In this document: one piece after another, positions 5,108-60,150 of the stretch
How positions within the stretch are numbered: position 1 is the stretch's first letter
Layout: each line of letters begins with the position of its first letter
DNA from: Rhynchopus sp. YZ270_cl-10
Lineage: Eukaryota
Length of the DNA: 64,000 nt
Direction: 5' to 3'
NCBI GenBank assembly: GCA_964035575.1
Contig: OZ037833.1
Coordinates: 2,046,001-2,110,000 of the forward strand
Position numbers and translations under genes: made by a program
Notes under the pieces: generated by a model
Told to the model about the DNA's origin: nothing
The model's input: only the letters and a program-made list of their open reading frames with translations
Database searches by the model: none

Positions 5108-5640
5108 ATTTATTCGGTAACGAAGTTAAAAAATTTTTCGTTGACCGCAGCCATTTAGGCTCTTTGCCTATGACGCACATGATAATGGATGAGGGGGAGG
5201 ATTCAAAAGGAAAAAGCGTAAAGACAGATCTATCGTTGGTTTTAAATATGTTTAGTTTCCAATCACACTTCGTGTGTGCAAAAAAAAAAAGAAAAAAAAT
5301 AGAAGCTGTGGTTGCACATATATTTATTGAGACTGAAGAATGAAAAAAACGTACCACAAATCTCTATACGAAAAACAACCTGAGATGCTTCTTATTTTTT
5401 TTGTTGTGTTGCTCGCAAACAAAAAAAAACGAAAAGAAAAAGAAAAAGTTAGTAAGATGGACTCTCTGTGTGTAGCCACCATATTTTAAAAAGAAATATA
5501 ATTTGAAAGAAGTGCCTCTCGTGCACACAAAAAAAGAGGCAACAAAACTGTCCATACAAAAAGAAGATGACCTTAAAAATTGAGAAGAAGAAGAAATGAG
5601 GGGGGATTTTTGTTTTTTGGAGACTTCCCCCCCACGTTCA

Positions 5641-6642
5641 TCACAGTTCCTCGAGGTAGTTCGGGATGTTGAAACCGTTGTATTTTCTGTCGAGGTACTG
5701 CTTGACTTTGCCGGCTTCGCGGCGATCTTGGGGGTTGACTTGGAGACAGCCGTGGATGACTGAGAGTAAACAGAGCCAGTCGTGTTCGAGACTGGTGAGA
5801 GCGACGTCTGCATCGCGGCGTGCAAGGACGCCCTCTAGCGCGGCAGAAATCTCGAACTCACCCTCAACAATCTTTTCCTGAAGCAGGACGACGTTGTCAC
5901 CATCGAAGGGATACTTCAGGAAGGCCAACTCATAGGCCACAACCCCTGCAGACCACACATCGCACTTCGAAGTGTACGACCTCCCCTGCACTATCTCCGG
6001 TGCCTGGTAGTACGGCGTCCCCACCGTCGACGTCGCCAAGGTGCTGCACTCCGACTGAAACGAAAACCCAAAATCGCAGAGCTTCAGGAAACAGCTCGAC
6101 ATCATGAGGATGTTTTCAGGTTTGACGTCTCTGTGCATGATCCCGCGGGTGTGGAGGTAGTCCAGCGCATCGCTTATTTGACGGACCAGACCTAATACCT
6201 GGATTGGAAGCAGCGTTTTGGTCATCAGCTGGTAGTACGATACGAAGTGTCGGAGGTCGCGGAACTGTGCGTATTCCATGACAATGTAGACAGCGCGGGA
6301 GGTCTGCCAGTAGTCGAGGAGGGACATGATGTGGGGGTGGTTGACGGTGCGCATCACTTCGATCTCGCGTTTGACGCGCCGTAGGTTTGTCGCGGATTGC
6401 ATCGGAATGCGTTTCGCCACCAACGGTGTCGAGCTCGGATGCCCCTTCATCCTGATCAGCATCGCATTGCCGTATGCCCCGCTCCCAACGTGCCCTACCA
6501 CCTCATACTTCGAGCAGGAGTCGTCCGGTGTGTCTGTGTCCTTCGCAATGCACAACGTCTCCTCGCAGACCCTTACGTCATGCAATGCATGGTTCACCCT
6601 TGAACCCGTTGAGATTTGTCCACCATGCTGTGCACGTGGCAT
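5641..6642 (-). CDS. NEK (NIMA-related) Ser/Thr protein kinase
   Basis: GSGAYG, VAKRI, HRDVKPENI, DFG, TVGTPYYQAPE, YTSKCDVWS; probable start MPRAQ after a pyrimidine tract. Confidence 0.88.
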   Translation of the reverse strand: MPRAQHGGQISTGSRVNHALHDVRVCEETLCIAKDTDTPDDSCSKYEVVGHVGSGAYGNAMLIRMKGHPSSTPLVAKRIPMQSATNLRRVKREIEVMRTVNHPHIMSLLDYWQTSRAVYIVMEYAQFRDLRHFVSYYQLMTKTLLPIQVLGLVRQISDALDYLHTRGIMHRDVKPENILMMSSCFLKLCDFGFSFQSECSTLATSTVGTPYYQAPEIVQGRSYTSKCDVWSAGVVAYELAFLKYPFDGDNVVLLQEKIVEGEFEISAALEGVLARRDADVALTSLEHDWLCLLSVIHGCLQVNPQDRREAGKVKQYLDRKYNGFNIPNYLEEL

Positions 6643-6905
6643 TTTTTTTTGTGTAAATCTGTAAAAGTGGTGGAAGAGGGGGAGAGAGGAGAGAAATATG
6701 TATAAAAAAAAAGTTGGCTTGTAATACAGCCTGCTCATGACAATGTACCTTGGTAGATTTAAAGACCTCAAGAAAGACATAGGGGGGAAGGGGGTGGTTC
6801 ACTTTTTTTTGAAGCGTACAGAGGGGAGGGAATGGGGAGTTTGTTAATTATGTTTTTTTTTTTGCAGAATATTGCAAAATGGAAGTTTATTTGGTGCACC
6901 AAATA

Positions 6906-6950
6906 CCCTCCAACTGACCATACAATGCCAGCCATCCGGATGAAAAGCAC
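6906..6950 (-). other. Dispersed hairpin family A, diverged copy
   Basis: Shares atgccagccatccggatgaaa(a)gcac with four other copies. Confidence 0.7.
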
Positions 6951-6995
6951 AAAAAAATAACAATTTTTTTATGCATCATTTTTTAAAAAGGGGTT

Positions 6996-8750: not shown

Positions 8751-10095
8751 TTTAAAATGGAAAGAACTGCGTTTTTTTTTTGGGGGCGATTTGCCAAAAA
8801 AGCGAGAGAAAAAAATGCGGTGTGTAATGTCAGACCATTTTTTTTTAAAGGGGTTGCGAAGGAGGGGTTCGGTCTGTATGAAGGGTGTTTGAACGAATGT
8901 ATTCAGTTTTTGATTTTTTTTTTTTTAAATCTGATTACGGTCAGCCATCAACGCAAGCGGGTTTGCATACTGTCACCATTTTTTGTATGGACAAATCCCC
9001 ACGGAGGGTTCTGAAACGGTCCTCAAAATGTCACCCGAAGAGGGGGGTGTTAACCGAATTGTTCTGCTCACATAGACCGTTGGGAGATGTTAAAAAATAG
9101 GGAGGAAATGGGGTTCTTTTTGAAAACTTGGTTGCATTAGTGTAGATATAAAGATGGAAACAATTAGGAAAAAAAATTTCTTTCGTTCTTTTTAGCCTGG
9201 TGCGGGTCGTGGCGACTATCGGATAGTTTTCTTGTTCCTTTAAGGAAGTGAGGAATACGGAAAAGGGATGGCCAATGCCAGGATATTTTACGGTCTCCAG
9301 TGCTGAACAAAGAGTAGCTGAAACGTGCATAAACGCACCTCGGTGCGTTGTGGGAGAAATATTTTTTTTTAAAAAAATGGTGAAGTGATGCAAAATTCCA
9401 CAAAAAACACCGTCGTGATGGTGACGGTGGTTGCAAAAAACTGAACTATCTCCACCAACTGATTGATGATAACTTGATAACACCTGTCTTTGAGCGCACA
9501 AACAAAGACCCTTTTCTTAAAACGCTAAAAAGTTTCGTTGAAACGCAACTCTACTGCTTGTCAAGGATCTGTGTGGCGCAATGTGATGATAAAATCAAAA
9601 TAACTGTGTCATCAAATCATCTGAACGCTGACTTTCTTATTATCTGCTTCTAATCAAACTATCGTGTAAGAGGGGAAAATAAAGAAGTGGCATTGCTGTA
9701 AGAAGTCACCCTGTAAAGGATGAACATAAGCATACTGGGAGGGGGAAAGGGGACAAGATCCTTGAGTTTTTGCTTTGCTTCTTTCTTTTTTGAAAATTTG
9801 GTTGTATTAGTGTAGCCACCCTAGAGTATGCCCCACTATACTTTTTTGTTGTTGCTTTGCGTTTTATGCTGGAATCGTGGGGGCTTTCTTGGGAGGGATT
9901 CGAACATCCCAATTTTTCGACACTTTTTTAATTAATTATGACCATTTACAGGGCATTAGTTAGGTTTTTCCCCCCAAAAACCGGTTTTCTGGTTATTCCC
10001 CCCCATGATGATTTTTCATTGATTCTCGCACTGTACCCACTTCAGAAAAATGTCCACCCTTTGAAAAACCAGATTCCGCGAAAAACCGATTTAAA

Positions 10096-12579: not shown

Positions 12580-13098
12580 TATAAAGAGAAGGTTTTAAAA
12601 AGAGATTATAGGGGGAGGAATTCTACGCAACCATTGTTTTGTGTTTTGTTGTTTTAAGAAAAGATGTAGTGCTTCAATGTTGGGATCTCTCTGGGTGGTG
12701 TTTGTTTTTAGGGGCAGATGATAGGAGGGTGATAGGGAGGGCTAATGGGAGAAGGGAGAGAGAGATGCAGGAATCTTTCATTTTTCCATTCTGCAAAGCA
12801 AGGGGTGTGGCATCACAGTTTTTTAAATATGCGGAGAAATGGAGGAGGGTGGTGGGCAGGGCGCGCGCTAACTTTTCGGAAATTTCCCGAAAAAATGGAT
12901 ATCGGGTCCAAAAAAATGTACCTACAGGAAGTATGTGAAGGGGGGCAGAAAAATCAGGGTCATGTTACATTTCCGAGAAAATCCCGGGCTGTGGTGGGGG
13001 ATATACGGAAAAATGGACAAAATTTTGGTGACTTAAATTTTCACAAAATATGAACCCATACTCGTAAACAAGGGTCATTTTCAGGTCTTTCGGACAGC

Positions 13099-13468
13099 CA
13101 GTACACAGTACACAGTACACAGTACACAGTACACAGTACACAGTACACAGTACACAGTACACAGTACACAGTACACAGTACACAGTACACAGTACACAGT
13201 ACACAGTACACAGTACACAGTACACAGTACACAGTACACAGTACACAGTACACAGTACACAGTACACAGTACACAGTACACAGTACACAGTACACAGTAC
13301 ACAGTACACAGTACACAGTACACAGTACACAGTACACAGTACACAGTACACAGTACACAGTACACAGTACACAGTACACAGTACACAGTACACAGTACAC
13401 AGTACACAGTACACAGTACACAGTACACAGTACACAGTACACAGTACACAGTACACAGTACACAGTAC
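13099..13468. repeat. Perfect heptamer satellite (GTACACA)n, about 52 copies
   Basis: Directly visible. Confidence 0.97.
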
Positions 13469-13730
13469 CGTGACTTCACCGGCCAACACCGGAAAACACC
13501 GGCAAACATGGTCAAAATCAGGTGGAATATACATAAGTACATCATGGGGGGGTAGGGAACAGGTAGCGCCGCAGGCGCACGGTACCCAACTTTTTTCTTT
13601 TTTCTTTCCCCTTTTCTCTGCTTTCTTTTGATTGCGCGAGCCGATTGCTCTCCACGGTGGGGTCACATGTGTGTCCAAAAACTATCTGAAGTGCCCTTAC
13701 TGTACAACATGGGATTCTCTGATTTTCTTA

Positions 13731-14031
13731 CTGGGGGGGGGCGAATAAGAGATGTGGCATCTCTTATTAGGCGAACGGACGAGCCAAAAATAAAAAAAAT
13801 TTTTTTGGGGAAAAAAAGCAAATAGACATTTTCGCCGGAGGCAAAAAAAATTTTTTGACCACTTTTTTGCCAGACCGGGTAGACAGGGTAAAATTTCAAA
13901 ATGTTTTTTCAAGATAAAACCCTGGTGCGTGCAAAAAAAAAAAAAAAAAAATACCCCCAAAATCTCAACCTGATCTCTTATTCGGCTCTAATCTCTTATT
14001 CACCCCTGATCTCTTATTCGCCCCCCCCCAG
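13731..14031. mobile_element. TA-flanked (Tc1/mariner-like) MITE nested in the hAT MITE
   Basis: TIR ctg(g)ncgaataagagat / atctcttattcg(c)nag; TA on both sides; near-identical copy at 29159-29457; empty site in the 20057 hAT copy. Confidence 0.88.
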
Positions 14032-14491
14032 TAAGGAAATCGTGTAATCAAAAAAATTTTGTACCGCGAAAAAACCTCGAAAAAACCGGGTGTGAGGGTG
14101 TGGATTTAGCGCGCGCCCTGGTGGTGGGGGGGTGTAAAAATAAAATAAATAAACAGAGAAAGGTTTGGTAAGGATGAACCTAATCCACACATGGTTGGTC
14201 ACCTATAGCCACCTTAGAAGAAAAAAAAAACCCGAAGAAGCCTTGAGAGATGGGCCTCGCTTTGCACATTTAAAATAAAAAAAGAAAGAGGGTGCGGGAA
14301 GATATCAACTCTCGCGTGAAACGCGCAGTTCACCCTCTATTTTTTTCAACACAACTAGCACAACTATGTTTTTTTTCTAACTCTTTTGGGATATTAACAT
14401 TTTTCTCTCTGCGCGCGTTCTTTTCTTCAAAAATCGCACAATCAAATAGACTCGCGGGTATTATGACACAGTCCCAGGGGAGGGGGTGTTT

Positions 14492-18949: not shown

Positions 18950-19380
18950 CCTCGGTACCCTTTGGCGGAAAGAAACCCTGCAGTGTTAAAAAAAGAGGAG
19001 AAAAATAGAAAAATGAAATACCCCCCTTCTTTATTCGTTGCGCGTTGTTTGTGTTGATCACTAAGCCTCTACGCATAGTAATAATTTACTGCGGTGCCGC
19101 AGTGAATAGAGAATGAATACACATGGTCCCAAAAAAGAGGAAAATATTGGGGAATCAGAGGATTTATCTTTTTTTTTTGACAATCACCTACCCGAGTAGG
19201 GGATCGCGGTACTCAAATACCGCCCGAAGGCTATTTTTTTCTGGGAGAAAAAACAACAGGCCTGACACTCAGGGGGGGGAACGGCACCTCAATTGAGATG
19301 CAGGGTGTTGAGGTTACACATTGCTTTTTTTCTTCTCCCCATCCCTACCCCAGTTAAGGGAGGGCTGTGGGTGGCTATAT

Positions 19381-19615
19381 CGGAGTGAACCAGCTACTAG
19401 ATGGTTCGATGGGTCTTTCGCCCCTATACCCAGCTTGGACGAGCGATTTGCACGTCAACACCGCAACGGTCCTCCACCAGAGTTTTCCCTCGGCTTCGAC
19501 CTATCCAGGCATAGTCCGCCCCTATACCCAGCTTGGATAAGCGGTTTTGCCCTTCAACGCCGTAAGGGTGTTACACCAGAGTTCCCCCTCGGCTTCGACC
19601 TACTTAGGTATAGTT
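19381..19615 (-). pseudogene. LSU (28S-type) rRNA fragment plus a second, decayed partial tandem copy
   Basis: Reverse complement reads ...GACGTGCAAATCG...GGGTATAGGGGCGAAAGAC..ATCGAACCATCTAGTAGCTGGTTC, a conserved eukaryotic LSU segment; 19518-19615 repeats part of it. Confidence 0.85.
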
Positions 19616-23763: not shown

Positions 23764-24567
23764 AAAAAAAAAGGGGGAAACGCTCATATAGAGTTGTGCA
23801 TGCACCACGAGAATGCGTTTTCACAATTGTTGGATTTTGTTTTTGTTTTTTTTTGTTGGGAAACAAAAATGAGGTGCTAGAGTGGGGTGGTGTTGGGCGG
23901 TGTGGAATAACTAAGAGAAAAAAAACATAAGAAAAAAATATACAATGTTTTTTTTTTTTTGCTGAACAAAAGAAGAAGAAAAAATATGGCAAGATGAAAA
24001 AAAAATACCCCCAAAAATAAAAAACAATGGCATCGAACAGCACGCGTTTTTTTCCCCCCCCTCGAGAGAACTGGAGCTCACAGTTCCATGAAAAACCCAG
24101 GAGTCATTCATGTCCAAAATTCTCATTTCTTTTTTTTTTTTTTTTTTTGTATTCTTTCAAAAAGAAGAAGGTATGGAGAATGTGTCCATGTACACAATCG
24201 TCTCCATCCTTTTGTCCAAAATGGCGAATGTCGTCTACGGATTCCAATGAATCCTAAAAATACCAAAAAAATCTCGAAAAAAAAAACAAAACTAGACACA
24301 AAAACCTAACCTCTCTCAACACAAACTAAAGGTTGAACGGAAGCGTAAACGCTCCTAATAAGGATCAAGGGGGTGAGTCTTCAGCAAAACCTTCACATAT
24401 AAAAGAAAACGTGAGGTTTTCGAGAGCCCGATCGACTACAAAACAAGAAAAGGAAACACACACACACACACACACTTGAAAGATGAATATGCCTCTCACA
24501 CACATTTTTCAAAAATGCATCTGCAATGGCATCTCTGCCACCACTCTGTGGGTGATCGAACCCCTCG

Positions 24568-25598: not shown

Positions 25599-26019
25599 GC
25601 GGGTTAAAAAAAAAGTATTTTCATCATATGCAATCAATAAATTGATAGTATATGGTGAGGGATCAACAAAAATGGTCCCATCTTTCTTTTTATGTTGTGT
25701 GTTTTGCAAAACGTAGAAAAGAAAAGTAAAATGCTTCGTGCACAAGTTGAAACTTCAGTAGATTGGTTTCTGATATTAACCCTGTTTCAGTCCTAAGAAT
25801 CATAAAAAAAAAAAAAAAAAATAGAACACATCATAAGACACATTATTTAGTGAAGAAAAAAAAAACGGAGGGGGGGAAAGTAGGTAAGAATGAACGTAAG
25901 CTTCACTGTGCTTAGTCACCTGAAGGAGCAGATCTTTCTACAGAGGCAAGAGTTGTACAACACGAGATATTCAAATCCAAAATGTCCACATAACACACAA
26001 AAAATAAAGAAAAGTTTAT

Positions 26020-26052
26020 AAGATGATCCTAAGCCTCTCGTGCTTAGTCACC
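26020..26052 (-). other. Dispersed hairpin family B, representative copy
   Basis: Sense strand GGUGAC-UAAGC-ACGAGAG-GCUUA-GGA-UCAUCUU; about 20 related copies in the window. Confidence 0.8.
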
Positions 26053-28057: not shown

Positions 28058-29158
28058 TTGTGTGTATTCTGTGGAGGATATGACTATGCACGACACAACA
28101 TCGCAAACGGTACAAAACAATATTCTCTTTCTTTTTCTCTCTCTTTTCTGAGAATTCTTGCTGACTGCACCAACCGCTTTGCCAACAACAGCGCTAGGAG
28201 AAGGGGTCAGCTGAAGTGGCAAAACGGGCCAAAAAAAAGAGGAATAGAACTTTCAGTGTTGAATGCCAAAAGAGACGAAACCCCAAAACCTCTGCTTCAA
28301 TAGTGGTTGTGGTGTTTTCCCCATAGTCAGCTACGATACCTTCCCCCCCTCCTTTCCCCCGTTCCTTCTCTGAGGGGGTTCAGGCTCAGCTGCTTCAAAA
28401 CAAACAAAACTTTAAACATCCAAATTCCAAACAAAAACAGGGTCATATATGCACATTTCTCCCCCACTCCCACAACTGAACAATACCATTAAGGCTTTCT
28501 TGGATCAAAAAAGAAAAAGAAAATTTGATAAGATGACCCTAAGCCTCTCGCGCTTAGTCAGCTTTGATCAAAAGGTACGATGCATCTAAACCTCATGTTT
28601 AGTCAAACAAAGAATACCTCATAAAAAAAAATTGTAAAGATGAAAATGCCTCTTGTGCACAACAACAACAACTTTAGAAGGAAATGCCAAAAGGAATTTG
28701 TCGAAGATGTGACCATGGGGGAGGGGGAGGTACAAATAGAGCATCCTCTCGCGAAGACACAGACTCATGCCCTCAGAAGACGACAAAAGGGAGGAGGGGT
28801 TAAAAAAGGGGTATTTTAATATCGCAGGAAAGGGGGGGGGGGGAAAGGAGGGAGAAAAAAAATTGATTAGATGAGCCTCAGCCTCCGCTGCTTCACCTAA
28901 AAATGAAGGAGAACCAAGAAAAAAAAACCCCCTTGACAAGATAAAGAGATGCACTACCTCACTCTGTACGCATCAAAAAATAATAAGACCAAACCACCAT
29001 GGACATGTGTCCACAGGAAAAGAAGAAGAAAAGAAAAAAAAACCTTGATCAAAATGTGCCTTGTGTATGCACCTCATTACGCCTTTCTTTTTCAAAAAGG
29101 TGTTTTGTTTTAGAGTAAACCAATCAAGCGGGGCCCGGTAGATATCCCCCAGCCCTTA

Positions 29159-29457: not shown

Positions 29458-31613
29458 TAACGATTTGTTTTTTTTTTTTTTTTTGATTTTTTTTTGTTGC
29501 CATAGCTTTCGAACGCGCGTTCGAAAAACGAAAACGCGCAAATCCAAAATCGGTTGCAGAACAAAAAAAAAAGAATGCCACTCACGATACACGCAGAGCG
29601 CTCTGTAGATAATAGTGCCTTGCTTAATGAGTGGAGAAGGTTCTGAAGGTGCCTCACAGAGACCTCGAGAGGAGGGGTGTACAAAACTAAACCGAAAGAA
29701 GAGGGAGAAAAAAAAAACCAGAAAGACAACTTCAAAGATTCATGGCTTCAAAAAGCTAAACAAATAAACATCAAGGTGAAAATGGGACACACAATAAATA
29801 TAACCACGTATCTCGGTAAAAGCTAGAACAAACACCTAGATACTCATGTGTATCGCACACCCACTCCATTCTCACCTTTATAATAGCATCAATATGCAAC
29901 GAGGGGGGTTTTGTGCACAAAATTTGATGTGAATTGAAACAAGAAAATTCAGGAAAAAAGAACAAAAACAAAATCACCCCCCACAACACTCTTGTGTATG
30001 CACAAGAAATGAGTTGGGTAGAAACATTTTTTGTCGTTAATAAAAATCGTCAAAGAGTATAGAAAAATGGTGAGAGCCTCGACAAGACTTAAAACCGCAC
30101 CAAAATTTAAAAGATGTCATCTTTAAAATAGCAAATATAGCACAAAAAAAGAAAAAGTTCGGGAGAGAGAGAGAGAGAGAGAGATTGTGTTTATGAGGAA
30201 AACACAGCCTTTTAAATGTTACAAAATGAACCCCCCCTCTGTTAGTGTAGCTTGCCTTGCAATTACCCTTTTGCAGTTCTTTTGAAATACTTCGTTGCAT
30301 TTGACTTCATTTTTTTTTTTTTTTATAGTTTCGACAATCACCAGTCCGAGGACGGGTTCTGTACACAACGTCGCCCGAAGGCTAATGAATTTCACAGGTA
30401 TAAATGCAGTTTTTTCCCTTCTCCCCATTTATATTAGCCCAAAAAAGCAATTATTTTGAGGAAGTAGAGTTGCGACAAAGTTAAATACCCATGAAAGGTG
30501 TATACAAGGAGTGGGGATTGCTCTATCTATCACCCTCAATGAAAAAAGGGAAAGAGAAATTGAACCTTTCAAATGCCCCACCGGACACCACGCCGGACAC
30601 AAGGCACCTAAAAAGAAAATCTTGAAGAATGAATGTGCCATGCCGCACACCACTATAAGGCTACCTAGACCTTAAGGTAAGTACAGTAGTCCAAATTTGA
30701 CATCCAAATAATCGCGAATTTGGGCAATTTAACACCTTTCTTTGGACACCAATATTTGGACCACTGTATTGTTTTTTGACACACGGTTAAGCCTTTTTGG
30801 GGGAAAGGAAAAAAAAATATCAGACTCTTGTATTTTGCATACGATGGGTATGTTGTTAAAGCAATTAAACATTGCCATAAAAAGGGCAGGAAGGTTTTTT
30901 TTTAAAAAATGCAAGATGAACATAAGCTATGCTTAGTCACCTTCAAACAAGTATCCGACAAGGTTATGACACAATTTTTTTAAGGAATTGGAGATGGGGT
31001 TTTTGGTTGTTTTACGCCGTAAAAAAAATATCATCATGTCAAAAACGACAAGGCTCAATTACATTTTAACAAACCTCTAAGGCTAGGGTATTTACAAAAC
31101 GACACACCTCATCCATGAGAGTGGGAGGGTTGGTTGGGTTTTTTTTTAAAACGTGGAGAAAAATATATAATGGAGTTGAGACGAAATAAAGAAAACGCTT
31201 TCTTGGGCGTACATAACCGGACCAGCTCCGGGACCATCTTGTGGGTTCTTCTGCGTGAAATCAAAAAAGAACAAAAAAAAACAAAAACAAAAAACACCGA
31301 GTCTATGGCATTGCACTCACTTTCGTTTTTCATCCCATGGAGAAACAAAGCGTGGGGGGATCTATGAGAAGCGAGGCGAATGAATAAGAAAAAAAAGAAG
31401 AATTGCCTCATATACTAACTATTCTACTGAATAGAAGGTATAATAGGGTGCACTAAATGTACCCAAACTTTTTACTTTATGTGGATTGTTTGTTTAGAAG
31501 AAAGGTTTATAAGATGACCCTAAGCCTCTCGTGCTTAGTCTGAATAGATTATTATTTGGTTCATTCATCAGTGCTTAGTCACCTTGATCACATTAAAAAA
31601 AGTGAAGTTATTA

Positions 31614-31668: not shown

Positions 31669-33009
31669 AAATAAACAAAAATGTTATCAGGTAAACCTAT
31701 TCCTCTCCGTGCTTAGTTACCTTCAAAAAAGGGGTGGGAGAAAAAAAAAAAGAATATTGTTTCACATCTGAAAGGATCCCTTTAAAGAGTTGGTAAGCTA
31801 CTCCTCTAAGCGTTCATGATTTTTGGTCACCTTCACATCGGAAGATGTAGGATGGATCTCGCATGGATCACAATTTAAATTCAAATACTTTCAATTCAGC
31901 ACAGAAAGCATATAGGGGTGTTAGCGCACAACACTTTCTCTCTACCACCACCACCATCCCATAGAACCTTCACAGAAGAGAAAAACCCAAGAATTATTTC
32001 ATACCATTCTATTGAATAGAATAGTATAAATGGTGTTCCTGAAACACCATTTAGTCAAGGAAGGATGTCATTATAGGCCCCCTCCGGAACACCAATAAAC
32101 CAAGAAAAAAAATATGAGAAAAGATGAAAGTGCCCCTCTGTGCACACATCTCTAATCTGCATTGGAAGTTAGGTTCGAACGGTTAGAACGACAAAAAAAG
32201 AACAAACACAAAAATAAGCCTCTCTGTGCTTAGTCAACCAAATGGTGTCAGCTGGTCTTTGAAGTGCAAAGACCAAACAAAATCTACCAAGAGACAGCAA
32301 AGAGAGAAAAATCAAGTTTATAGTGCAAAACGCTACGGAAAGGCACTAAAAACAGACAAAAATACAAGATAATCAAGGAAAAGGAAACTGGACAGATGAG
32401 GCCAAAAATGGCACAAAACCCGTCGCCTTTTTGTATTCACAAAAGAAAGAGCCCCGGGCCGATTAAGCAGGAGAAAGTATATCACAAATGGAAAGTCATG
32501 GTTCTTGTTTCGCTTTTTTGGAGAGAAACGTCATAAAAGAAAAAAAAAGCGAATTGCATAAAAAGAACCCGGGTAAGAAAACGGGTTGTATGGACTGAGG
32601 GGGGGTATGCGTGTCTGCTTATGACCTAGACGGGTGTAGCTCCTCCAGGTGCAGCCGACGGTTCATTTGGCTGTGGACGCAGCGTCACGCTGAAAGATGG
32701 GAAAAAGAGATGTTGAAAGTGCAAACGCCTCACCGGACAATCGGGGGACGCAGGGTACTGAAAGAAAAATATGTTAACACGGGCTTACGTTAAGAGACGA
32801 GCACCAATGAGACAGGCACAGAGCATGGGCATATATTGTGCCAAGAAAAACAGCAAAAACAACACTTGAAAAAATATAGTTCAAGTTGGAAAAGTCTAAC
32901 AAAGAATGTGAAAGGAACAGAGCAACCAAACGAAAACGGCTGTATCGCCATTTTGAGAATATTTTATTTCTTTCCATGCCCCGTGCCGAGAGGCAAAGGT
33001 GTCTAGGAT

Positions 33010-34539: not shown

Positions 34540-35910
34540 TTGTGTGTATTCTGTTTTGTGGGGAAATCATACGACAAATTGAGACAGATTGAGAAGCAAA
34601 AATAACACTCTTTTTTTTTTTTCCTCCCGCCAGTACTCTAACATACGATGCAACGTGACGACAAGCGATAAACAGGTGGTACCTGTTGCAACAGTACTCA
34701 ACGAACTGTTGTTCATTTTACTTTTTCGAAGAAAAAAAAGAGGGGGTTTTTTGGTTCTGAAAAATGAAAAGAGGCGTGTTGTGTGATAAATAACACACAA
34801 CCCACCGAACAAGCTAGAAGTGCACACACAAACTGGAGAGCCAGACCGTAGGTTTTCTGAGTTCTCATTGGTGAGAAAATATGAGATCTGTGCTCAGGCT
34901 GGGTAAACTAAAGGGGGGAAGAACGCGATGCACATTTTTTTACTGAGTAAAAACGCTTCGCTTCAGCTTTGATAGATCGAACGTGAAAGGTATCAAAAAA
35001 GAAAACGTTTTTTTGTGTGTGTGTGTGGGTGGGGTTCCAATAAAAGACACCCTCAACAGAGTTTGAAAAAGGTTAACAAAAAAAAAATAGTGAAAAATAA
35101 ACCCCTTGAAGACAAGCGTGGACCTCACGGAACTCACTATATCTTTATAAAAAAAGAAAAAAATTCACAGGGTTTTCGTTTCGTCCTTACCCTATATTTT
35201 TTCCCCCCTTTTTCGGTAGTCAAAAGCAAAGCAAAAAACGAGAAAAAAATGAAAGAAAAAAATGAATGCAAAAAACTGCACAACGTTTTTCTCTTTTGAA
35301 TTTTTTGTATTCTTTTTTGGGCAGCCAAAGCTTAGATGGGGGTAAGACGCGAAAATGAAATATCAAGAAATGAACGGAACTTCCGCCCCCCTACCTTAAA
35401 GTGTCCAAGATAGTAGCGATGACGAGGATTGTTCGTGTGGGAGAAAAGAGATTTTGTGCAAATAAAAAGCAAAGAAAAAAGCAAAAACAAAAGGTAAACA
35501 TTGAGCACAAAACACACAAACTCCACACGGAACAATATGACTCGCATCGCGTATCAAAGAACTTTATTTTTTTCGAATGAAAAAAAGGGTGGAGGGGGGA
35601 GGATCTGGACCGAAGCATCGACCTTTCCTCACAATTGGTACCCCACAAAAGCAAACTGGCTGTTAAAAAAGAAAAAAAAAGAAACTGTGAAAGCAACATA
35701 GATAGTGGAGAACGTCTGAACTAAAGCAATGATGATATTGGACGGGCGTGGGGTCTTAGTATTTTGTTTTGAAATAAAAATACCTACACTCCCGATATGT
35801 TCTCCAAAAAGTAAGATGAACCTAATCCTCTTAAATAAAAACGCGCACATCACCACACTCTTTTTTTAAGCGTTTTTTTCTTCCCCCCTTTTGTCCCAAA
35901 ACACAACATT

Positions 35911-41045: not shown

Positions 41046-41894
41046 TATTTTTGTGTATTTTTTTTTGTGTAAATCGCTGACAGAGTGTTGAAAAGGGGGA
41101 GAAGGAGAGGAGGGGGAGTTTGAAAATGTTTTTTGTAGATCTTTAATTTTGCATTGAGGGGGGAGGAGGGGGAGAGAGCAGAGGAAAGGGTTGGGGGAAA
41201 AAATGGAGAGCTTTTTTTTTTTTTTGAATGTTTTCAGGGTTTCGTTTATCGATTTTATTGGAGAGATGTGAAGGGGTGGTGATGGTGGTGATGGGGGAGG
41301 GGGGGGAAGGGCAGCATATTGCAGTTCTGCTTCGCCGAATACGCGTCCAAAACGTAGGGGTGCGATTTTAGAAGAGTGTGGCTACAAAAAAAAAAAAAAA
41401 ACACAAAGAAAAGTTTATAAGATGAACCTAAGCCTTTCGGACAATCTCGTGCTTAGTCATCTTGAAGGAGGGGGTTAAAATTGATCAAAAAAAACAAAAA
41501 AAAAACGAGAGAAAAGTTTATCAGATGAACCAGAGCCCCTCGTGCTTAGTCATCTTCAAAGGGTGGAGATGAGTTGAGATATACCCGAAAACCCAGAGGG
41601 TATATCTGACCATATCTGTATTTTCGGTGGGTATCCCAAACTTATTTGGGAACCCACTTATTTCCCTTAATTCGCGACTATTTCTCTGCTAAAAAAAGAA
41701 ACCTAAATTGCTGATGTTTAGGTACCTTGAAGAGGGGTATCACAAAGATATCATGATTGCAAAAAAAGGGCAGATTATGTGTTAAGTCGACCGCCGGCCA
41801 AGGCAGTCGGATTGGGGTGTGTGTACAAGGTGAATTTCGTCGCCTCGTAGAAGAAAATAAAAACGCACAAAAAAAAAAAATTGAAAAATGAATC

Positions 41895-41941
41895 CACCTC
41901 CGACTGACCCACCTACGATGCCAGCCATCCGGATGAAAGCA
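41895..41941 (-). other. Dispersed hairpin family A copy
   Basis: cacctccgactgacccacctacgatgccagccatccggatgaaagca. Confidence 0.8.
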
Positions 41942-42581: not shown

Positions 42582-43903
42582 AGGGTCCGACCAGTCCACC
42601 GTGTCAAGAAGAAACTCTCCCCCTCTCCCCACCTGGCAACTCTACATCATATTTTCCACGAATTCTGCAAGAAAATCTAATAAAGTGCCTCTCTGTGCTT
42701 TGTCACCTTTTAAAAAAAGAAACTTGAAAAAAATGCATCCCAATTCTCGCCTCAAACTTGCCACCTGACGAGACAAAAACGATAAAAACAGATTTGATAC
42801 TGCCTATACTGGGCGCATAATACAAAATATAAAACTTGAAAGATGGAATCCACATCATCGACAACAACACATCTTTTAAACAAAACTGAACACATGAACG
42901 AAGCGGGAGGGGAAATGAATGGGGGGCTTTTGTTGGAGACTTTGTCAGGTTAGTGTCTGAAAGCGCAAAATTCTGGTTGCAAATAAGAACACCCGAAGAT
43001 GCACTCGCTCCACTCTACCCCCCTTTTTTTTTTGTTTTGTACAATCACCTTTGTACGGAGACAAGGGGTCTGTACATAACCTTTTTTCTTTCTTTCGTTT
43101 TGAAGAGACGATATGCATCCTAAGGGAAGAGAGGCTGCACTGCGTCTACAAACCCACACACAAAAAGAACACACAGAAGAACATACAAGGGGAGAGCAAG
43201 ATTGAAAAATAAATAACAAAAACAACAAAAAAAAAAAAACGAAAAATTGGTGAAATGATATCACGGTTTTCATTGTTTAGGTATCTTCAAAAAAAAAAGG
43301 GGGTGTCTGTGCTGGGAAAGCATATGACATTTACAAAAGGAAATGCCTTTTGAAAAAAGGGGGAGGAAAAAAAATCTTTGAAAAATGGCCTCATGTGGGT
43401 CACATATTTCAAAACAAAAGCAAAAAAAACAAGAAGTGGCAAGATGAACGTAAGCCTTTGCTCGCTTAGGTTTATCTAAAACAAAGAAAATTTGTCAGAT
43501 GAAATGTGCCTCTCTTACACACACATATTTTACCACTATCGTTATCGTGTGGGGAACACGGAAATATTGGGATAAAGTAGGGGGTTACACGAGAAATATA
43601 CTCATTGTCTCTGTTCAAATTCTACCATAACTACAAAACAGAACTGGAAGAAAAGAGGGGTTAGTATAAAAATCCCGTGGACACACACAAAGCGTATCGT
43701 TTTAAAAAAGACAATTTCTGGCAGTTTTACCCACCTTTTGTGACACAATTATTTTTTGTCGATTCGTTCGAGACCAATTATCTTAATTTTTTTGGAGAAT
43801 AAAAAAAGTTGAAAAAATGATTCTAAAGAAAACTTAGAAAAAGTGATGAACCCATCCTTTTCAAGTTTTAAAAAAATTCCCCTCCCCCCTCCCTCCCTCC
43901 CTC

Positions 43904-51715: not shown

Positions 51716-53028
51716 CTAGGCAATACGTTGGAGCTCGTGGGAGTAGTTCAGCTGGTTTTGGATGAGCTCGGGGAAGGGGAGGTGGCTGTTGTGTTGTTCT
51801 GTGTCTGAGAAGAAGAAGGCGTCGCCTCTCAGGTTCCACGCGGCGCTGCTGTCATCAAGCTTCTTTCTCTCCTCATCAACGAACTCAAGCACCTCCGCTG
51901 TTTTGTCGAACATCAGCAGCTTTCTTGCACCCTCCACACTCAAGCTGTCGTACGAGCACATCGCACACTTAAAGACCTCACGTCGCACCGTCACAAGAAG
52001 CATCTCCATCAGCGGCTCGTAGTGTGTCGAAGGCGCCTTCTTCCTTGCGGTCAACATCTTCAGGTAGCTTCCTTCCATCAGGTACCGCTCCAGCTGGATC
52101 ACATCCTGTGTGGTAAAATATACAAATAAAAAGTGAGTTTTTTGAGCATACTTTGATGTACATGCTGTCCTGGTCGACGGTCGTAATGCGTTCAAGCTCC
52201 ATGTGGAACATCCGTGTCTCGTTGGTGGCAAGCAGCTTGAGGAGGTGGAGGCCGAGGATCAAGAGTCGTCTCTCGCTTGCCGGCTCGTCTTCGAAGTCTG
52301 AGTAGTATGCACGCAGGATCTCGAAATGTCTTTCAAACGCAACTGAAAGGGAAGAGGTGTTGGGTTGAGGGTTGAGGGGTGCAGGGTGGGTCCGTGAAAG
52401 CAAAGAAAAACTTGTAAGATGAACACGCCTCTCGTGTCACATCTTTTAATCAAACCCGGGAGCAAAGTTGAGAAAAGGGGAGGGAAGAGAGAGGAGCATG
52501 CACAACCGCCATACCCATGTTTTTTTCCGACGCTGCTGCAAGAACTGCGTGCTCCATGGTTTCCCGCACCAGCATCACCTCCTGACCTCTGTAATGGAGT
52601 GGGTTGTTGTGAGTAACGAGATGTGAAGCGCAAGGGTGCATGCCAATAGAGGGAGGAGAAAGCCTGACACCCTACAACCTGAGCTCTGGATCCAACTACG
52701 AGCTTTTTAACAGCAGCAGCATTAATATACACTCTTGGTGTTGGAATTACCGGGGAGGGGGTAAAATAGTTGCGTGAACAGATGAAGTGGACATACCTTG
52801 TTGGGGGTTTCGCCTCGGGGTTCAAAAAGGTCGGGAATTTAGTGAAGAGTAGCTTCAGCTGCGTTAGTGTCTTCTTTGCCTCGTCATAACTCTTCGCCTC
52901 GAGCAGCTGTGTGGAAAAGGGGTAGGTTAAAATTAAATTTTACGACAAAATGCACTAACGGCGCATACCTTTACATAATTCTGGTACAAACTGTGTGCTT
53001 CTACCACCGCTTTTGCAGGATCGGACAT
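51716..53028 (-). CDS. RPN12: 26S proteasome lid subunit Rpn12 (PSMD8), five exons
   Basis: Spliced product MSDPAKA...FERHFEILRAYY...ILGLHLLKLLATN..FHMELE...IQLERYLMEGSY..TVRREV...NQLNYSHELQRIA; four GTATG..AG introns. Confidence 0.88.
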
Positions 53029-53239
53029 TTCTTTTTCTTTTTATCTAGTGTGTGTTTTAGTGTGTGTAGAGCTGAGCAGATGTGGTCGAATATGGTTTGT
53101 ATGCTTTGGGTAGTACGGGGGGAGAAGGGAGATACCGCACCTTCAGACGAAGTGTGGTGAGAATGGTGAGATAGGGTGGGGTGTATAAAAGTGAAGTTAT
53201 TAATGCAGACATTAGATTAAAGAAAAACTGTAGTTGTTG

Positions 53240-53294
53240 ATGCAGGCACCTCCGACTAACCCACGTACGATGCCAGCCATCCGGATGAAAGCAC
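53240..53294 (-). other. Dispersed hairpin family A copy
   Basis: atgcaggcacctccgactaacccacgtacgatgccagccatccggatgaaagcac. Confidence 0.8.
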
Positions 53295-53672
53295 AAGTAC
53301 CCTGCGGCCAACAACAGAAGATGTAAAAAGGAAATCTAATGACTGGCCCGTACCGTAAGGTATAAAAAGGGGGGAGGGCAATCGGGGAACACCATTTTTC
53401 TTTTTATATCTTCAAGCAGAGCGGACCCAACGGGCCAGCGAAAGGGTGGTTTGCAGGGCGAGGCAGGGTAAAAACGGTAAGATCTGGGATAACACAAAAA
53501 CAAGGGTTTCAACCCCCGGAATTTTCCTTTTTTGTCGGCGAAATCTTTAATACCTCCATTGAAGAGGATCAGATCTCTACGATATATCGATTTTTTCTCT
53601 CAAAACCTTTTGTAAAAAAGATCTTTTTGCACAGCAATTTACATCAATTTTAAAAAAGGTACCCCCAAGATT

Positions 53673-54626: not shown

Positions 54627-56942
54627 GTAAAACAAAAAATTTACAAAAAGATCTGGGTGAGGCTTTCTGGAAAGGATTCTAAGGAGAGTAGGGGAAGGGG
54701 AAGTGTTTTGGAGAGGGGAGAAAAAGGAGGATGGAAGGATGGGATTATTTTTTTGTTGTTGTATTCAACTCTTCTTTTGTGTTGGTTTGTTTTTTTGCTT
54801 GCAATGTATTTGTTGCCTTTTTTTGAAACCTACAAACGTTGACTTTTTTTTGGGTGGGGTAGTTACACACATCCCTCCTAAAAAAATACCAAATAAAGGG
54901 CGACAAAACTGCAACAAATCATTGCTTAATTTTTTTTTTACTGAAATTCTAAATGCTTTTTTTTAAGGGTATTGCCTATTGACATAATTTGTGCAACACT
55001 CTTTATTTGTTTTCCCCCCAGGCAATGGAGAACGGTGTAACACACCTTTCTGATAAATCCGAAACCTGGCGAAGTGTTATTACTGCGTTGTTGTGTGCAA
55101 CGCAAGGTTTTTTTTTTTTTGCTTTGTTTGTTTGTTTTTTTCCCGTAAAATTGAATGCAAGGCTTCAATTCGATACTTCCATCTAATTCGGGGGTTGGAG
55201 TGTGGAGTGAAGGGGAGGGGGATGAAGAAAAGAAAAATCTAAATCAATGCAAAAAAAGTAATCCTGTAATTGTGGTTCACTGGGTCGAAGAAAAAAATAA
55301 GGATAAACACAAAACACGCTGCTGGAATTCGCGATGAGACGGAAAAAAGCACAAAAAAAAAGAAAGCAACAATTTTATATCCTGACTACCTTATCAAATA
55401 GTAAGCAGGGTATAACATAGACTTCCAAAAAAAAATGTCCGATCCCATGGAAAGTGTACAAAGTAACTATATTGTCCCATCTTCTCGTCATGGATTGATA
55501 AATTAATTACACTACAAATTGACAGTACTGAGGGTAGCAAAAAATGGGGATACAGATACCATATTGTACACTCACATTCACAAAAAACGCACGTCGTTCC
55601 ACTTTATTTTATCCGTTCTTTTTTTCCACAAAACCCATTAACAACTAGGCATCGCAGGAACCCCTTCAGACAGAAAATCTTAATGCATTGAAAAGAAACT
55701 TAATGGAGAGAGCTTTTTTGGGGGTGAAAAAGGGTCACATAGATTTCATCAAACAATGTTAAGGGGGTTTTGGGGGAGGGTTCGGGGGAGTGATTTTTTT
55801 TTTTTGCCGGGAGGGGGGGTGATTGGTCCCCCCATTTCCCAAGCAGGGTACGCTCAACGAATGATTTTGTTTGTTTGTTTGTTTGTTATTTTTTTTGTGT
55901 GGAAACAAAAACAAGAAATGGAAATGATAATCATATCCCGCCATTATTTTTTGTCATTCAACCACAGCCCATAGCATTTTAAAAATGCAAAGTTGAAAAT
56001 GTGATAACGCGTCAAAGGACGCACTGAAACCCATAAAAGAAGAAAAAAAGTGGGTAAAGATGAATTGAAGCCTCTAGTTGCTTATCACCCAAAAAAGAAA
56101 AAACTGATGCTCTCTCCCCCACTCATGGAGAAGAGTGCAAAAGGGAATCAAAAATCCCATTACAAAGAAGACCTAAAAGTGCAAAACTCAGTTACATCTT
56201 CGGACTACTATTCGAGAGAAAAAAAACTTGCAAGATGAATGTACCTCTCGTGTACATTACATCTAAAATGAGGGTAAAAAAAGCAACAAGAGGCTGAAAC
56301 TCTGAATAAATTTGGGCAAAAAAAAAAAAAAAAAGGTTTTACCTGATGAACCTAAGCATAAGCCCTCTCTGTGCCTAGCAAAATTCATCTTGAAAAAAAA
56401 ATGCTATTTGTGTTCAAAATACAAGACATTTCGAAGAATAAAGAAAAGTTTATGAGATGAACCTAAGCCTCACTTGCTTAGCCACCTTGAATAAACCAAA
56501 AAAAAAAATCGGATTTTTTCTTCTTTTTTGGGGAGCCAAATAGCCCTTTCTAGCGGTGATCGTAAGATAAAAAGACTTCGAGACTAGCTACCACCAGGGG
56601 GGGAAGGGTTTGGCTCTATTGCTGATACTAATGAAATAGTGGAAAAGCCCACATTATGAAGGGAGGGGGATCGGAGGGAGGGGGGCATCTAAGGGGAGAG
56701 TTGGAAATAATTTCTTTATTTCTGTCGTAAAAATAAATGCATTTTTCGTTTAAAAAAAAGGGAAAATAAGAGATTAAAGAGCGAAAGCAGTTTACCAAAG
56801 GATAATATTCTCTCAACTCTCTTTGCCTCTCATTTATATATTTGCCCCGTCAAAACGAGGAAATGAGACTCCAAAAAAAATTCGTTTTAAAACAAAAGGA
56901 AATTCCTTTTAGATTTCCTCTTTTCTTCTTTGGTTTTTGGTC

Positions 56943-58066
56943 TTATTTCGTACGCTTCCACTCATCGAATCCTTCAAGAAGCGCGCCGTTAACTACACTG
57001 CTCATGATACGAGCAGAGAAGCCTGCGTAGAAGAACAACCTGACGCCACCTGCTGCGTGAACTCCGTTTTTGAAGACATCTCCGTAGCCTCCCTTGGCGC
57101 TGATCAGGTTTCTTCTGATGGTGTCCCATGGGTAGGAAAAGAGCGAGCCGCTCATGGAGATTGCCATAGCGTGGAAGAAGCGTCTGATGGTGCCCATCTC
57201 CTCCCAGCGTGCACCGTAGTGGTCCTTCATCAGATCCCATCCTCCAAGCTGGAGACCACGGAAGATCATCAACCCAGGGGCGTCCATCATGAATCCTCTG
57301 TAGAAGCCCTTCATGCCATGCTCGGAGTGAACCTGTTTTGCTGCATTCCGCCATGACCCAGAGTTCTTTGTTGCAAGTTGTTGCCGCATCACATCAAGCG
57401 GGTACGCCCAAACCAATGCAGTACCCACACCAGTCGCAGCGCCAGATCCTACCTTGCTGAAAAAGTATTTCGAATACTCGGTTTTCTTGTCATAGCTGTT
57501 AAAATGTGAAATTTTGGGGGTGTGGGAGGGGGAGGTGTGGAGGGGGGGTGTGGGAGTATGCAAACCTCGGAACGTAACCAGAAATCGCGTCCTTCATGAA
57601 GAGATGGATGTATTGAGACGGAGCCCATCTCACCAGGGTTGGTGTCACACCACGCCATGGTGCGAGGTTGCCTTCTGCCCTCATTTGGTGGATGGTTTGG
57701 CTGAGAGACTGTTGAGGGGGGGTGTAATGGGGGGAAAGCAGAAAAAAGAACATACTGTAAGAGAAACACCGCTGTAGGTTTTGTTAAGATGCTGCGTTTG
57801 CATGAGCAATCTGATACGCTCCACTGTGGGTGGGTGGTGTACAAAGGCAAATAAAAAAATACACAATTCTTGCAATACAAAACCCTCTCGCGACAGTAAT
57901 GAGTGACAGGCCAAATCATCCCAGAACACCATGAAACACTATGAAACATACTTGGGTAGAGCGTAACCTTGACTGTGAACGGAACTGCCTGAACAGCAGC
58001 GAAATGCCCCACCTTGCGAAGCGTGCCAGACACCGAGTCTATTTGTGTTTGCTGTGCGGTTGCCAT
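56943..58066 (-). CDS. Mitochondrial carrier (SLC25), ADP/ATP-carrier-like, four exons
   Basis: Spliced YPMERIRLLMQTQ, EGNLAPWRG...RWAPSQ..FMKD, YPLDVMR, YPWDTIRR. Confidence 0.8.
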
Positions 58067-58765
58067 TTTCGTTTTTTTTTCTACCCCAATACGAGTATAC
58101 GGTCAAGTAAAGGTGTTTTTTTGGGGGTATTTTCCTTAGTTGTAAGATATCTGGCATTTGGAGAGGTGTTGTGTGTTGGGGGAGTTGGGGACAAAAAAAA
58201 ACGAAAGAACCAAACGTCTCTGGGACAGCAGAGACCCCGCGGGTTTATCGAAACCCGGACAAAAAAAGAAATATACGTCACCCTCAATCATTGAATGCCA
58301 ATCTACAATACAGAAGGTCTCTCACACAATGCACACTATGTGTGTGTGTATTTTTCATGAGATGAGTCATCCTATGACGTTTAAATTAAACAACCAGGGC
58401 TATTGTACTTAAAAGATACAGTCTTTTTTTTATATAGCAATTACCATCGCTCTTTTTTAGATCTAAATAGTTTTCGCCCCCCTTTTGCGCTTTTGTTTTT
58501 ATCAAAGAGACAACTCTGAACACCTCATCCCTCCCCCCAGCACAGAGGCCGTACAGTCTTCCCTTTGTGAGACAAACATTGTTTTTTCATCTTGGCAACT
58601 TGGTAACCGGCCTCCACGTTTTGCCTATCAAAAAGCGGTCGACAACCACCTTCATTAAGGTCGTTTCTATACCCAACATATGCATGGACAACCAACCTCC
58701 CTCCCGGCACAACATTGCTCTTATTTCCGCTTTACTAGAGGCATATTTCACACCGAAAAATTCGA

Positions 58766-59380
58766 TCATTCATTCACCGGCTCAACACTACCTTGCTGGA
58801 CCAAGGCCTCCGCCTCCTCTTGCGTCACAATGAAGAGCTTCCCCCTTCGCACTGCATGCTCCTGCCCTGTTTCGGGCGACATATAGGTGAAGTCTTTTAG
58901 ACCGCGTACGGAGACCATGTCTGTTACGTGGGGAGGTCTTCTGAGAGAGGCACGGAGGTTGAGACCGTGGGACTCCATGTAGGCGGAGCAGAGGCTCGAG
59001 TAGGAGCGGAAGAAGGTGTTTTCGGCGGGGCTGAGGCAGGCGGCGGTGGGGCCGGGGAGGTTCTGTCCGACCTGCCAGTAGGCGTCGGTGAGGGCGTGTT
59101 CACGCATTCTGGCATAGGTGTGGAGCATGCGTTTGTTGCGCAGCGCGCCCTCACAGAGCAGTGTATGCGTCGAGTAGTACTCCCGAAAGTCCACATTAGG
59201 GTTCTCCCGCAGCATCTCCGCCTGCTCCACCTGCACGCTCATCTCCTTCTTCACCTTCTCCACAGACTCTGCCGCATACTGTGGCAATCTATCCTGAGCT
59301 CCATGTGCGCGTTTGCTTGACCTAATCAACTCCGACGCACACCCACCCCAAGCAAAGCCTCCCCCCGCCTCACCGCTCAT
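58766..59380 (-). CDS. PSF1: GINS complex subunit Psf1
   Basis: LRNKRMLHTY..MR, LSPAE..FF..Y, PP....VSVRGLKD, AEALVQQG. Confidence 0.85.
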   Translation of the reverse strand: MSGEAGGGFAWGGCASELIRSSKRAHGAQDRLPQYAAESVEKVKKEMSVQVEQAEMLRENPNVDFREYYSTHTLLCEGALRNKRMLHTYARMREHALTDAYWQVGQNLPGPTAACLSPAENTFFRSYSSLCSAYMESHGLNLRASLRRPPHVTDMVSVRGLKDFTYMSPETGQEHAVRRGKLFIVTQEEAEALVQQGSVEPVNE

Positions 59381-60150
59381 TATAATACCTGTGGAAAAGG
59401 GGTGGAAGAAGAGAGAGAGAGAGATGAAGATCGATATGGTAGGTCAAACATATTTATGGCGATGGAGGTAATATTGAATAGTTCGTGCATATACGCTTGG
59501 AGAAGGAGAAGAAGGTGGAGAATAAAGTCCTCTAGTCCTTCGATACCAATGTGACTCAGCTACAGTTACCTCTTTTTAAAAAGTGCCCGTGGAGAGCAGG
59601 AGATGCAAGAAGAAGCCCGTGTGGAGCTCGGGGGGAGAGAATGCCCTCAATTAGGTCAAGAAAAGTTGGGATGGTGCAAAGGTGGAAAAAGGGGTATGGG
59701 GAGAGAGGGGAGGTTGCCTTTTAAATAGGGAGCAATTTATTGGTATTACAACTCTTTGAAAAGAAGGCAACTGTGTGTGTATGATGGAACCCGAACTGAG
59801 CCAGAATTGAGAAAAAAAAGGGGATTTTTTTTTTTTGTGAGGATGAACCTAAGCCTCACTTTCAATAATTAGTTGAGGGGGGAATCGTTTCCGCCGAAGG
59901 GCCTGCCGGTTGCTCTTTCTTTTTTGCAGGCAGGGCGCACTTAGACATACTAAAGGTCCAACAGTGCACTTCAGGCCGGCATATGGAGAACAGTGTTGGG
60001 ACACAAGCAGAAGGGGAACACAACACAACACAACGCACTATGTAAATAGCGCATCGAAGTGTCCCTAATACCCTCAATATGGTACCTAATACAAACAACA
60101 TTGGAGATGCTACATTGTTTAGAAAGCTGTTAAACACTATTAAGAATCAT

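Follow-up and report, generated by a model that had tools for sequence, protein, structure and literature searches.

A single-strand gene cluster with a short hairpin repeat

The window analysed here is a 64,000-nucleotide stretch of Rhynchopus sp. YZ270_cl-10 (contig OZ037833.1, positions 2,046,001 to 2,110,000), in which we identified many copies of a very short hairpin repeat, defined as "family B". The DNA is nuclear and from a diplonemid; for the GINS Psf1 protein encoded in the window there are six matches, one of them from Diplonema papillatum at 59% identity. All recognised genes lie on the minus strand. The gene models, and with them the stops, starts and intron mentioned below, are predicted from the layout of open reading frames (ORFs), and all statements on the orientation of family B cover this one single-strand cluster. 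D. papillatum has the same arrangement, with unidirectional gene clusters described (PMC10161547; papers are cited here for the excerpts that bear on each point). Also reported for that genome are long interspersed nuclear elements (LINEs), thousands of 28S ribosomal RNA (rRNA) pieces (~3,600), Helitron ORFs, a full RNA interference (RNAi) gene set, and 3′ untranslated regions (UTRs) with a median of ~800 nt and lengths up to several kb (PMC10161547).

A sequence-only reading of the window had listed 24 positions with hairpins in gene orientation. We found family-like sequence at all 24, in each case on the minus strand, as is every recognised gene. A profile hidden Markov model (HMM) of 20 copies gave 26 matches at E<0.01, 26 on the minus strand and none on the plus strand, seven of them held out; ten block-shuffled windows gave no match at the same threshold. 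The covariance model, built from 12 copies, gave 20 matches at E<0.05, all on the minus strand and 12 of them the training copies, and at E<=5 the minus strand had 30 of 32 matches. Taken by itself, the loop word matches 11 times where 4.9 are expected, only a weak enrichment. Additional copies were detected near 28870 and 56340, and weaker ones near 5441 and 30625. Family B is a real element of about 50 bases with two subfamilies.

The bias towards one orientation is not peculiar to family B. Three other short repeat families, here called D17, D18 and J, are also entirely on the minus strand (5/5, 8/8 and 3/3), as are a large subunit (LSU) rRNA fragment and the ORF of a retroelement. The 26:0 orientation, together with a closing stem that carries G.U, is unlike a terminal-inverted-repeat MITE (miniature inverted-repeat transposable element), which inserts in either orientation. 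A palindromic repeat at 31408-31467 and ~32000-32035 seems by eye to occur in opposite orientations, and could serve as a DNA-type control for strand bias; the profile search found one copy only.

Anatomy of the copies

In the long type (L), a basal stem of 7 bp, one position of which is G.U or A-U, is followed by a 2-nt bulge and an upper stem of 6 bp that AAGC/GCUU closes; in the short type (S) the upper stem is GUGC/GCAC. Both finish in a short A-rich linker and a U-rich tail; such a simple-sequence tail follows most full copies, on a sense strand that is somewhat U-rich anyway. Deviant copies include 3′ halves, 5′ halves, a loop insertion, an internal duplication and one chimera, with a 5′ arm of the long type and a 3′ arm of the short, which therefore mispairs. 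The partial and intronic copies of the sequence-only reading are present, the latter in a predicted intron. Its consensus overstates how exactly the family sequence is kept: the loop ACGAGAG occurs in 5/24 copies, the quoted tail in 4/24 and both consensus basal arms in 3/24. The copies are as follows.

26006..26052, minus strand: exemplar L copy, with 7-bp basal stem, 2-nt bulge, 6-bp upper stem, ACGAGAG loop, A-rich linker and U-rich tail; contigs of other loci cease matching at both ends
56443..56492, minus strand: L copy with a 7-nt flanking direct repeat beginning with T
28519..28568, minus strand: L copy with an 8-nt flanking direct repeat beginning with T; last in a chain of three
28570..28613, minus strand: L copy whose upper stem has G-C replaced by A-U in a compensatory change; basal stem broken
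28626..28672, minus strand: S copy with decayed 5′ arm
28857..28903, minus strand: L copy absent from the first list
41511..41560, minus strand: L copy with two upper-stem pairs broken
41408..41467, minus strand: L copy with loop insertion, immediately 3′ of the tail of the copy near 41523
31677..31727, minus strand: L copy with a compensatory basal change and two upper pairs broken; its tail continues into a D17-family repeat
31500..31586, minus strand: split L copy (5′ half 31571-31586, 3′ part 31500-31542)
25876..25926, minus strand: L copy with variant loop
30902..30947, minus strand: L copy with 3-nt loop
14160..14209, minus strand: diverged L copy
56046..56095, minus strand: diverged L copy
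56332..56388, minus strand: L copy with internal duplication, absent from the first list
43430..43480, minus strand: L copy with basal stem mostly broken; middle of a chain of three
56221..56267, minus strand: S copy with fully paired 7-bp upper stem
52405..52449, minus strand: S copy in the predicted intron of a PSMD8/Rpn12-family gene, ~65 nt upstream of the next YAG
32110..32156, minus strand: S copy with GUGC/GCAC upper stem
24470..24511, minus strand: S copy
43482..43525, minus strand: decayed S copy
5500..5530, minus strand: S-type upper hairpin alone
42671..42713, minus strand: chimera of L 5′ arm and S 3′ arm, upper stem mismatched
32215..32239, minus strand: partial copy without the 3′ basal arm
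35811..35831, minus strand: 3′ half only
59837..59861, minus strand: 3′ half only
5441..5482, minus strand: weak copy that seems to be a chimera involving another short repeat family

Copy number, ends and chains

We compared four public DNA runs with window positions 23200-35600. The contigs in the bin of the exemplar copy have a summed depth, which is not a copy number, of 275,411 in run X1 and 145,395 in run X6; long single-copy contigs of the same runs have depths of ~75-135 (~75-110 in X1). The ends are sharp, with 209 contigs of run X1 ending loosely at 26052 and 87 at 26006. At other loci family B is joined to family B, D17 or D18, and the joint depths (~130-2,400) are nuclear-like, which suggests that these loci are nuclear. 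A mitochondrial source of the high depth was set aside, given these joints to other flanks at nuclear-like depths. Head-to-tail chains are formed both with other short repeats and by family B with itself; tandem joints of the latter kind occur in 13 contigs of run X1. Family B is a high-copy, fixed-length repeat with defined ends, dispersed genome-wide, and we infer that the genome has thousands of copies. Six other short families in the same 12 kb each have a summed depth >100,000 in X1, which makes the intergenic DNA a mosaic of short repeat units.

Stem covariation and decay

The stem swaps quoted in the sequence-only reading, near 28579, 31688, 32121 and 56232, are all present, but covariation among the 12 L copies does not rise above that of shuffled alignments. 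In a plain alignment of these copies 79.6% of cells pair, a level reached by 293 of 500 shuffles, and three cells are changed on both sides, which 203/500 shuffles also reach. The covariation score was equalled by 172/500. Thus, the significant covariation of an Rfam-type cis-regulatory RNA was not found. A model-fitted alignment of all 32 matches gave 14 cells changed on both sides (0/500 shuffles), but this alignment is fitted to the structure and takes in weak matches, and slid controls gave 15-22 such cells.

Departures from the core pairs of the L type number 26: 18 break the pair, five keep it, two compensate and one breaks it doubly. Of 23 single stem changes, 5 leave the pair intact, and the fraction expected under neutrality is 0.226; the stem pairs decay at the neutral rate. 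The paired swaps mostly separate subfamilies, and the strongest, which split L from S, amount to one historical event. The loop had been described as conserved; it varies more than the stems, with 0.27 substitutions per site compared with 0.11-0.13.

The hairpin is better formed on the gene-sense strand. Among 19 copies, G.U outnumbers A.C in the basal register by 13 to 5, and folding energy is lower on the minus strand for 24 of 34 candidates. Folding z-scores of single copies are ordinary (mean -1.0 minus, -1.1 plus; 34 candidates). In these points, as in the complete strand bias, the earlier view of an RNA element is partly supported.

Position relative to genes and target sites

Many copies had been said to lie 80-550 nt past stop codons. 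We found 7 of 23 intergenic copies within 550 nt of a stop, where 35% were expected (p=0.76), and 6 of 23 within 550 nt before a start, which is no excess; the distance to the next start is 374-4,158 nt. No copy occurs in 15 of the 24 intergenic regions and up to 11 occur in one. The number per region tracks its length (Spearman 0.72; p=0.16 against uniform density). The copies are clustered, as 21 of 33 candidates, weak ones included, have a neighbour within 150 nt (8.7 expected, p=0.0004). The first YAG after a copy is at an ordinary distance relative to T-run-matched controls (p=0.29 and 0.89), and we found no YAG at a constrained distance after a branch point and pyrimidine tract.

A dedicated signal for processing, polyadenylation or stability, as the sequence-only reading proposed, finds no support in these data: there is no relation to stops, starts or YAG, most regions have no copy, the pairs decay neutrally, half copies and a chimera occur, and the element behaves as a high-copy repeat. 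Of the findings that this reading had named beforehand as telling against it, two, no significant covariation and no positional relation to gene ends, were made within the window.

The flanks are T-rich on both sides (5′ flanks 47% T, background 33%). Direct repeats that start with T flank some well-kept copies, with 8 nt at 28530 and 7 nt at 56455. Repeats of at least 7 nt with two non-T bases were found for only 2 of 19 copies. With the first anchors, a swapped-flank test gave p=0.013-0.045, which was not upheld after anchor correction. Target-site duplications at family B copies are therefore suggestive only.

A proposed minimal U-tailed retroposon and its rivals

Family B is probably a mobile-type repeat of some kind, and we lean towards RNA as the route by which it was copied. 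Our preferred reading, held with scarcely more belief than doubt, is a minimal, non-autonomous, U-tailed, SINE-like retroposon (SINE, short interspersed nuclear element), possibly co-opted in places. A reverse transcriptase supplied by another element would recognise the RNA hairpin and its U-rich tail. Because there is no small-RNA-derived head, the RNA would have come from polycistronic read-through transcripts, by excision or by priming inside them. With the U tail as the priming site, new copies would enter T-rich tracts, in many cases the tail that an earlier copy had left. Pairing would be under selection in source copies only and inserted copies would then decay, so that paired swaps would mark subfamilies and private changes would break pairs. 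Antisense copies may be purged, through double-stranded RNA and RNAi, or insertion may be coupled to transcription. D17 and D18 support such a process, as both have long copies together with 5′-shortened copies that keep the 3′ end.

Several observations count against this retroposon. In the material covered, we saw no partner LINE ending in the hairpin and no empty site. The element (~47 nt) has no transfer RNA (tRNA), 5S or 7SL head, with no genes found by ARAGORN and no match in Rfam. Halves of the 5′ side occur besides 3′ halves, unlike pure 5′ truncation. The swapped-flank test with corrected anchors gave p=0.07-0.35 (19 copies with both ends, partial copies left out). Substitutions per site are fewer in the stems (0.11-0.13) than in the loop (0.27) or tail (0.35), which fits some constraint, or the selection of copies by stem likeness. 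Finally, T runs are only moderately asymmetric in the window, 183 on the sense strand and 128 on the other, too weak for target preference alone to give 26:0; some further factor is required, be it function, insertion coupled to transcription or the purging of antisense copies, and selection or co-option, as in Leishmania SIDERs, may have a part. Among the features of a SINE, high copy number, dispersal, defined ends and a simple 3′ tail are present and a small-RNA head is absent. Without that head and a settled target-site duplication, we do not file family B as a SINE.

The excess of 26:0 over the T-run asymmetry, the better-kept stems and the G.U excess on the sense strand would also agree with a cis-acting host element of 3′ UTRs, perhaps once mobile and later domesticated like the SIDERs; a protein bound to its hairpin would set how messenger RNA (mRNA) decays, is processed or is translated. 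Sense copies of SIDERs are enriched in 3′ UTRs (PMC2689281), and the cleavage that SIDER2 drives depends on structure (PMC5509151). With 3′ UTRs as long as those of D. papillatum, many copies could be in mRNA (PMC10161547). We nevertheless consider such an element unlikely, given covariation no higher than in shuffles, a neutral break rate, no enrichment at stops or starts, counts per region that follow length and leave most regions empty, one copy in a predicted intron, and other repeats that are equally co-oriented. The U tract and YUNAY-like words after the hairpin in many copies, and the intronic copy ~65 nt before its predicted acceptor, might instead indicate a splice signal in which a branch-point-like word and pyrimidine tract feed a downstream trans- or cis-splice acceptor. 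The first AG is indeed farther from the copies than in the background (median 35 vs 16 nt, p=0.0005), but this gap is marginal against T-run-matched controls (p=0.057), YAG distances are ordinary, the next start may be thousands of nucleotides away, and no clear family B hairpin was seen by eye in the 130 nt before the first ATG of 27 ORFs. Branch points of diplonemids are also poorly conserved (PMC12621601), and the splice signal is very improbable.

T-rich flanks on both sides, the lack of a robust duplication and the tandem joints of X1 would suit a minimal rolling-circle DNA element (Helentron- or HINE-like), or a foldback relic, whose hairpin would act in single-stranded DNA and which would enter T tracts and leave no duplication. 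The targets of HINEs are T-rich and stay unmodified (PMC4067079), and Helitron ORFs are among the D. papillatum reports (PMC10161547). However, family B lacks 12-15 bp subterminal inverted repeats apart from a 3′ palindrome, the whole element being one hairpin closed by a stem of 6-7 bp; a strand bias this complete needs more than target preference; and candidate T-starting duplications surround some of the best-kept copies. We regard this origin as improbable. Sharp ends and a U tail could also belong to a tiny structured RNA gene family, or to retro-copies of one small RNA, possibly the sarcin-ricin helix of LSU rRNA: an 8-nt loop word equals E. coli 23S positions 2657-2664, and the LSU fragment of the window is on the same strand, with ~3,600 28S pieces in D. 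papillatum (PMC10161547). Against this, no copy has an Rfam match at the gathering score or at E<=10, the family B model does not match E. coli 23S, and the exact loop is in only 5/24 copies. The bases around the loop in 23S, which form the bulged-G motif, are absent from family B. Among 120 viral loci with the loop motif, no rRNA match was found in the six scanned. A small-RNA origin is therefore distinctly improbable. Two contigs of the viral collection (L044:285-330 and L023:285-330) have the rRNA loop motif in a closing hairpin and no Rfam rRNA match.

The retroposon reading can be extended to a promoterless, tail-only superfamily of 45-100 nt (B-long, B-short, D18 and D17), cut from polycistronic transcripts and inserting or surviving only in gene sense. 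Through it, thousands of 3′ UTRs would have acquired a hairpin that binds a protein and whose GAGA loop reproduces the sarcin-ricin loop word, and post-transcriptional control across the genome would have gained a layer that arose independently of Leishmania SIDERs. We put this forward as a doubtful proposal.

Neighbouring repeats, mobile DNA and genes

The full form of D18 (62885..62945, minus strand; second full copy 25540-25602) comprises a basal stem, a GUGC/GCAC stem, a loop ending in AGAG, and AAC followed by a U tail, an architecture that is S-like by eye. D17 has the GUGC/GCAU stem in common, and the 3′ word as well. When S and D18 copies were aligned automatically, column identity was poor (47%), so kinship of D18 with family B is only a lead. 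D17 copies (6890-6959, 23701-23771, 31606-31677, 41880-41946 and 53232-53299, minus strand) are 65-100 nt, near-identical and of high copy number; two have a 5′ extension and three are cut at one point. By eye an H-type pseudoknot is possible; there is no Rfam match. D18-type 3′ ends (AAC word, pyrimidine tract, AG) at 23413-23449, 62885-62945 and 53185-53210 (minus strand) lie ~60-250 nt upstream of three start codons and may serve as trans-splice acceptors. The SIRE element of Trypanosoma cruzi supplies such acceptors.

J repeats (19172-19233 and 30326-30384, minus strand) are short, with UUCG-capped hairpins, a common 3′ word and high depth. A further family, F (24800-24865, 9790-9835, 9125-9150 and 30240-30262, minus strand), ends in an AAC-type word and a T run, like family B; its position 24845 has the highest single-site depth listed, ~2 million in X1.

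The LSU rRNA fragment (19392-19620, minus strand) matches Rfam model positions 818-952 (E 2.7e-27) and is preceded by a degenerate tandem copy of itself. It resembles the scattered 28S pieces of D. papillatum (PMC10161547). Likenesses of family B to LSU rRNA, in the flanks to the eukaryote helix 95 and in the stems to the piece at 19392-19527, were judged by eye only and set aside; the family B model has no match in this piece.

The retroelement (1450-5285, minus strand) has a 634-aa ORF whose relatives carry reverse transcriptase (PF00078), two of them also a tyrosine recombinase (PF00589). It has a ~145-nt direct repeat at ~1480 and ~5140, a ~185-nt tandem array at 2380-3190 and near-identical copies on other contigs, and looks DIRS/TATE/VIPER-like. 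Family B profile and covariance searches gave no significant match within it. A near-identical pair of ~310 bp (13721-14041 and 29155-29460) with 33-bp terminal inverted repeats, apparently TA-flanked, is MITE-like. A perfect tandem array of a 7-bp unit (CACAGTA) at 13095-13470 is within a segment that has an inverted paralogue at 20149-20929.

Other observations concern genes of the minus strand. A NagB-NagA-like ORF (21190-23367) fuses glucosamine-6-phosphate isomerase and amidohydrolase domains, and 26375-28057 and 33010-34539 represent a recent gene duplication, with ~1.25 kb identical and differing C-termini. A tRNA T-arm-like word at 9880-9915, without a full tRNA (ARAGORN, 0 genes), is a possible tRNA-derived fragment.

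Relation to known elements and significance

In the window, Rfam reported the LSU fragment alone at the gathering score and matched no family B copy, and pattern scans of viral, prokaryote-genome and metagenome contigs gave no match in any of the three. A comparison by eye with consensus features, together with the blank Rfam result, led us to reject SECIS, K-turn, hammerhead, HDV-like ribozyme and AGA-box guide RNA as identities of family B. A literature search that included excerpts of PMC10161547 and PMC12621601 found no such family described; the repeat supplement of PMC10161547, which may bear on novelty, was outside this search. In D. papillatum, ~10,000 dispersed motifs with up to ~6,000 copies each are reported, many of unknown origin (PMC10161547). 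Family B is a real, very small and apparently undescribed repeat family, and on present evidence it is not a demonstrated regulatory RNA.

SIDERs are several hundred nucleotides long. Like family B, SIDER1 and SIDER2 of Leishmania are euglenozoan, high-copy, non-coding, sense-enriched in unidirectional clusters and structured as RNA (PMC2689281; PMC5509151). The sense orientation is seen here in 26/26 copies of one single-strand cluster. Unlike family B, SIDERs have a 79-nt hallmark, some antisense copies in spacers and a regulatory effect shown by experiment (PMC2689281; PMC5509151). The whole family B element is shorter than this ingi hallmark, a difference judged by length and not by sequence comparison. 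SIRE, a VIPER derivative, is likewise a short non-autonomous intergenic repeat in a euglenozoan with tyrosine-recombinase retroelements, but it is ~430 bp and built of VIPER repeats (PMC6681497), whereas family B has no significant match in the retroelement of the window.

In stringent LINE/SINE pairs the 3′ end is a hairpin of ~50 nt whose stems vary in a compensated way while loop bases are conserved (PMC3747384). The tail shared by L1 and SINEs in maize and sorghum is, like family B, a ~50-nt hairpin with few conserved loop or flank bases and a simple tail (PMC3747384); in family B the hairpin is the whole element, without head or body, and no partner LINE was identified. Some SINEs are known to be T-tailed and to have duplications that start with T (PMC6007223). 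The T-tailed SINEs that depend on RTE, Au-like ones included, share with family B the T-rich 3′ tail, T-rich surroundings and T-starting duplications, candidates only in our case (PMC6007223); family B differs in being much shorter, with no tRNA-derived head and no significant duplications. Helentron-associated HINE and DINE-1 elements also have a T-rich target, a 3′ palindrome and very high copy number, and family B differs in being a single hairpin without subterminal inverted repeats (PMC4067079).

Diplonemids are abundant marine eukaryotes with apparently post-transcriptional gene control and unusually long 3′ UTRs, for which the excerpts of PMC10161547 give no known elements. In a lineage that can be transformed, a hairpin so compact, abundant and strictly sense lends itself readily to testing. 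Should family B be only a retroposon, it would be a very small one without a promoter head and would show how repeats spread in polycistronic genomes; if it has been co-opted, it would be a diplonemid parallel to the SIDERs.

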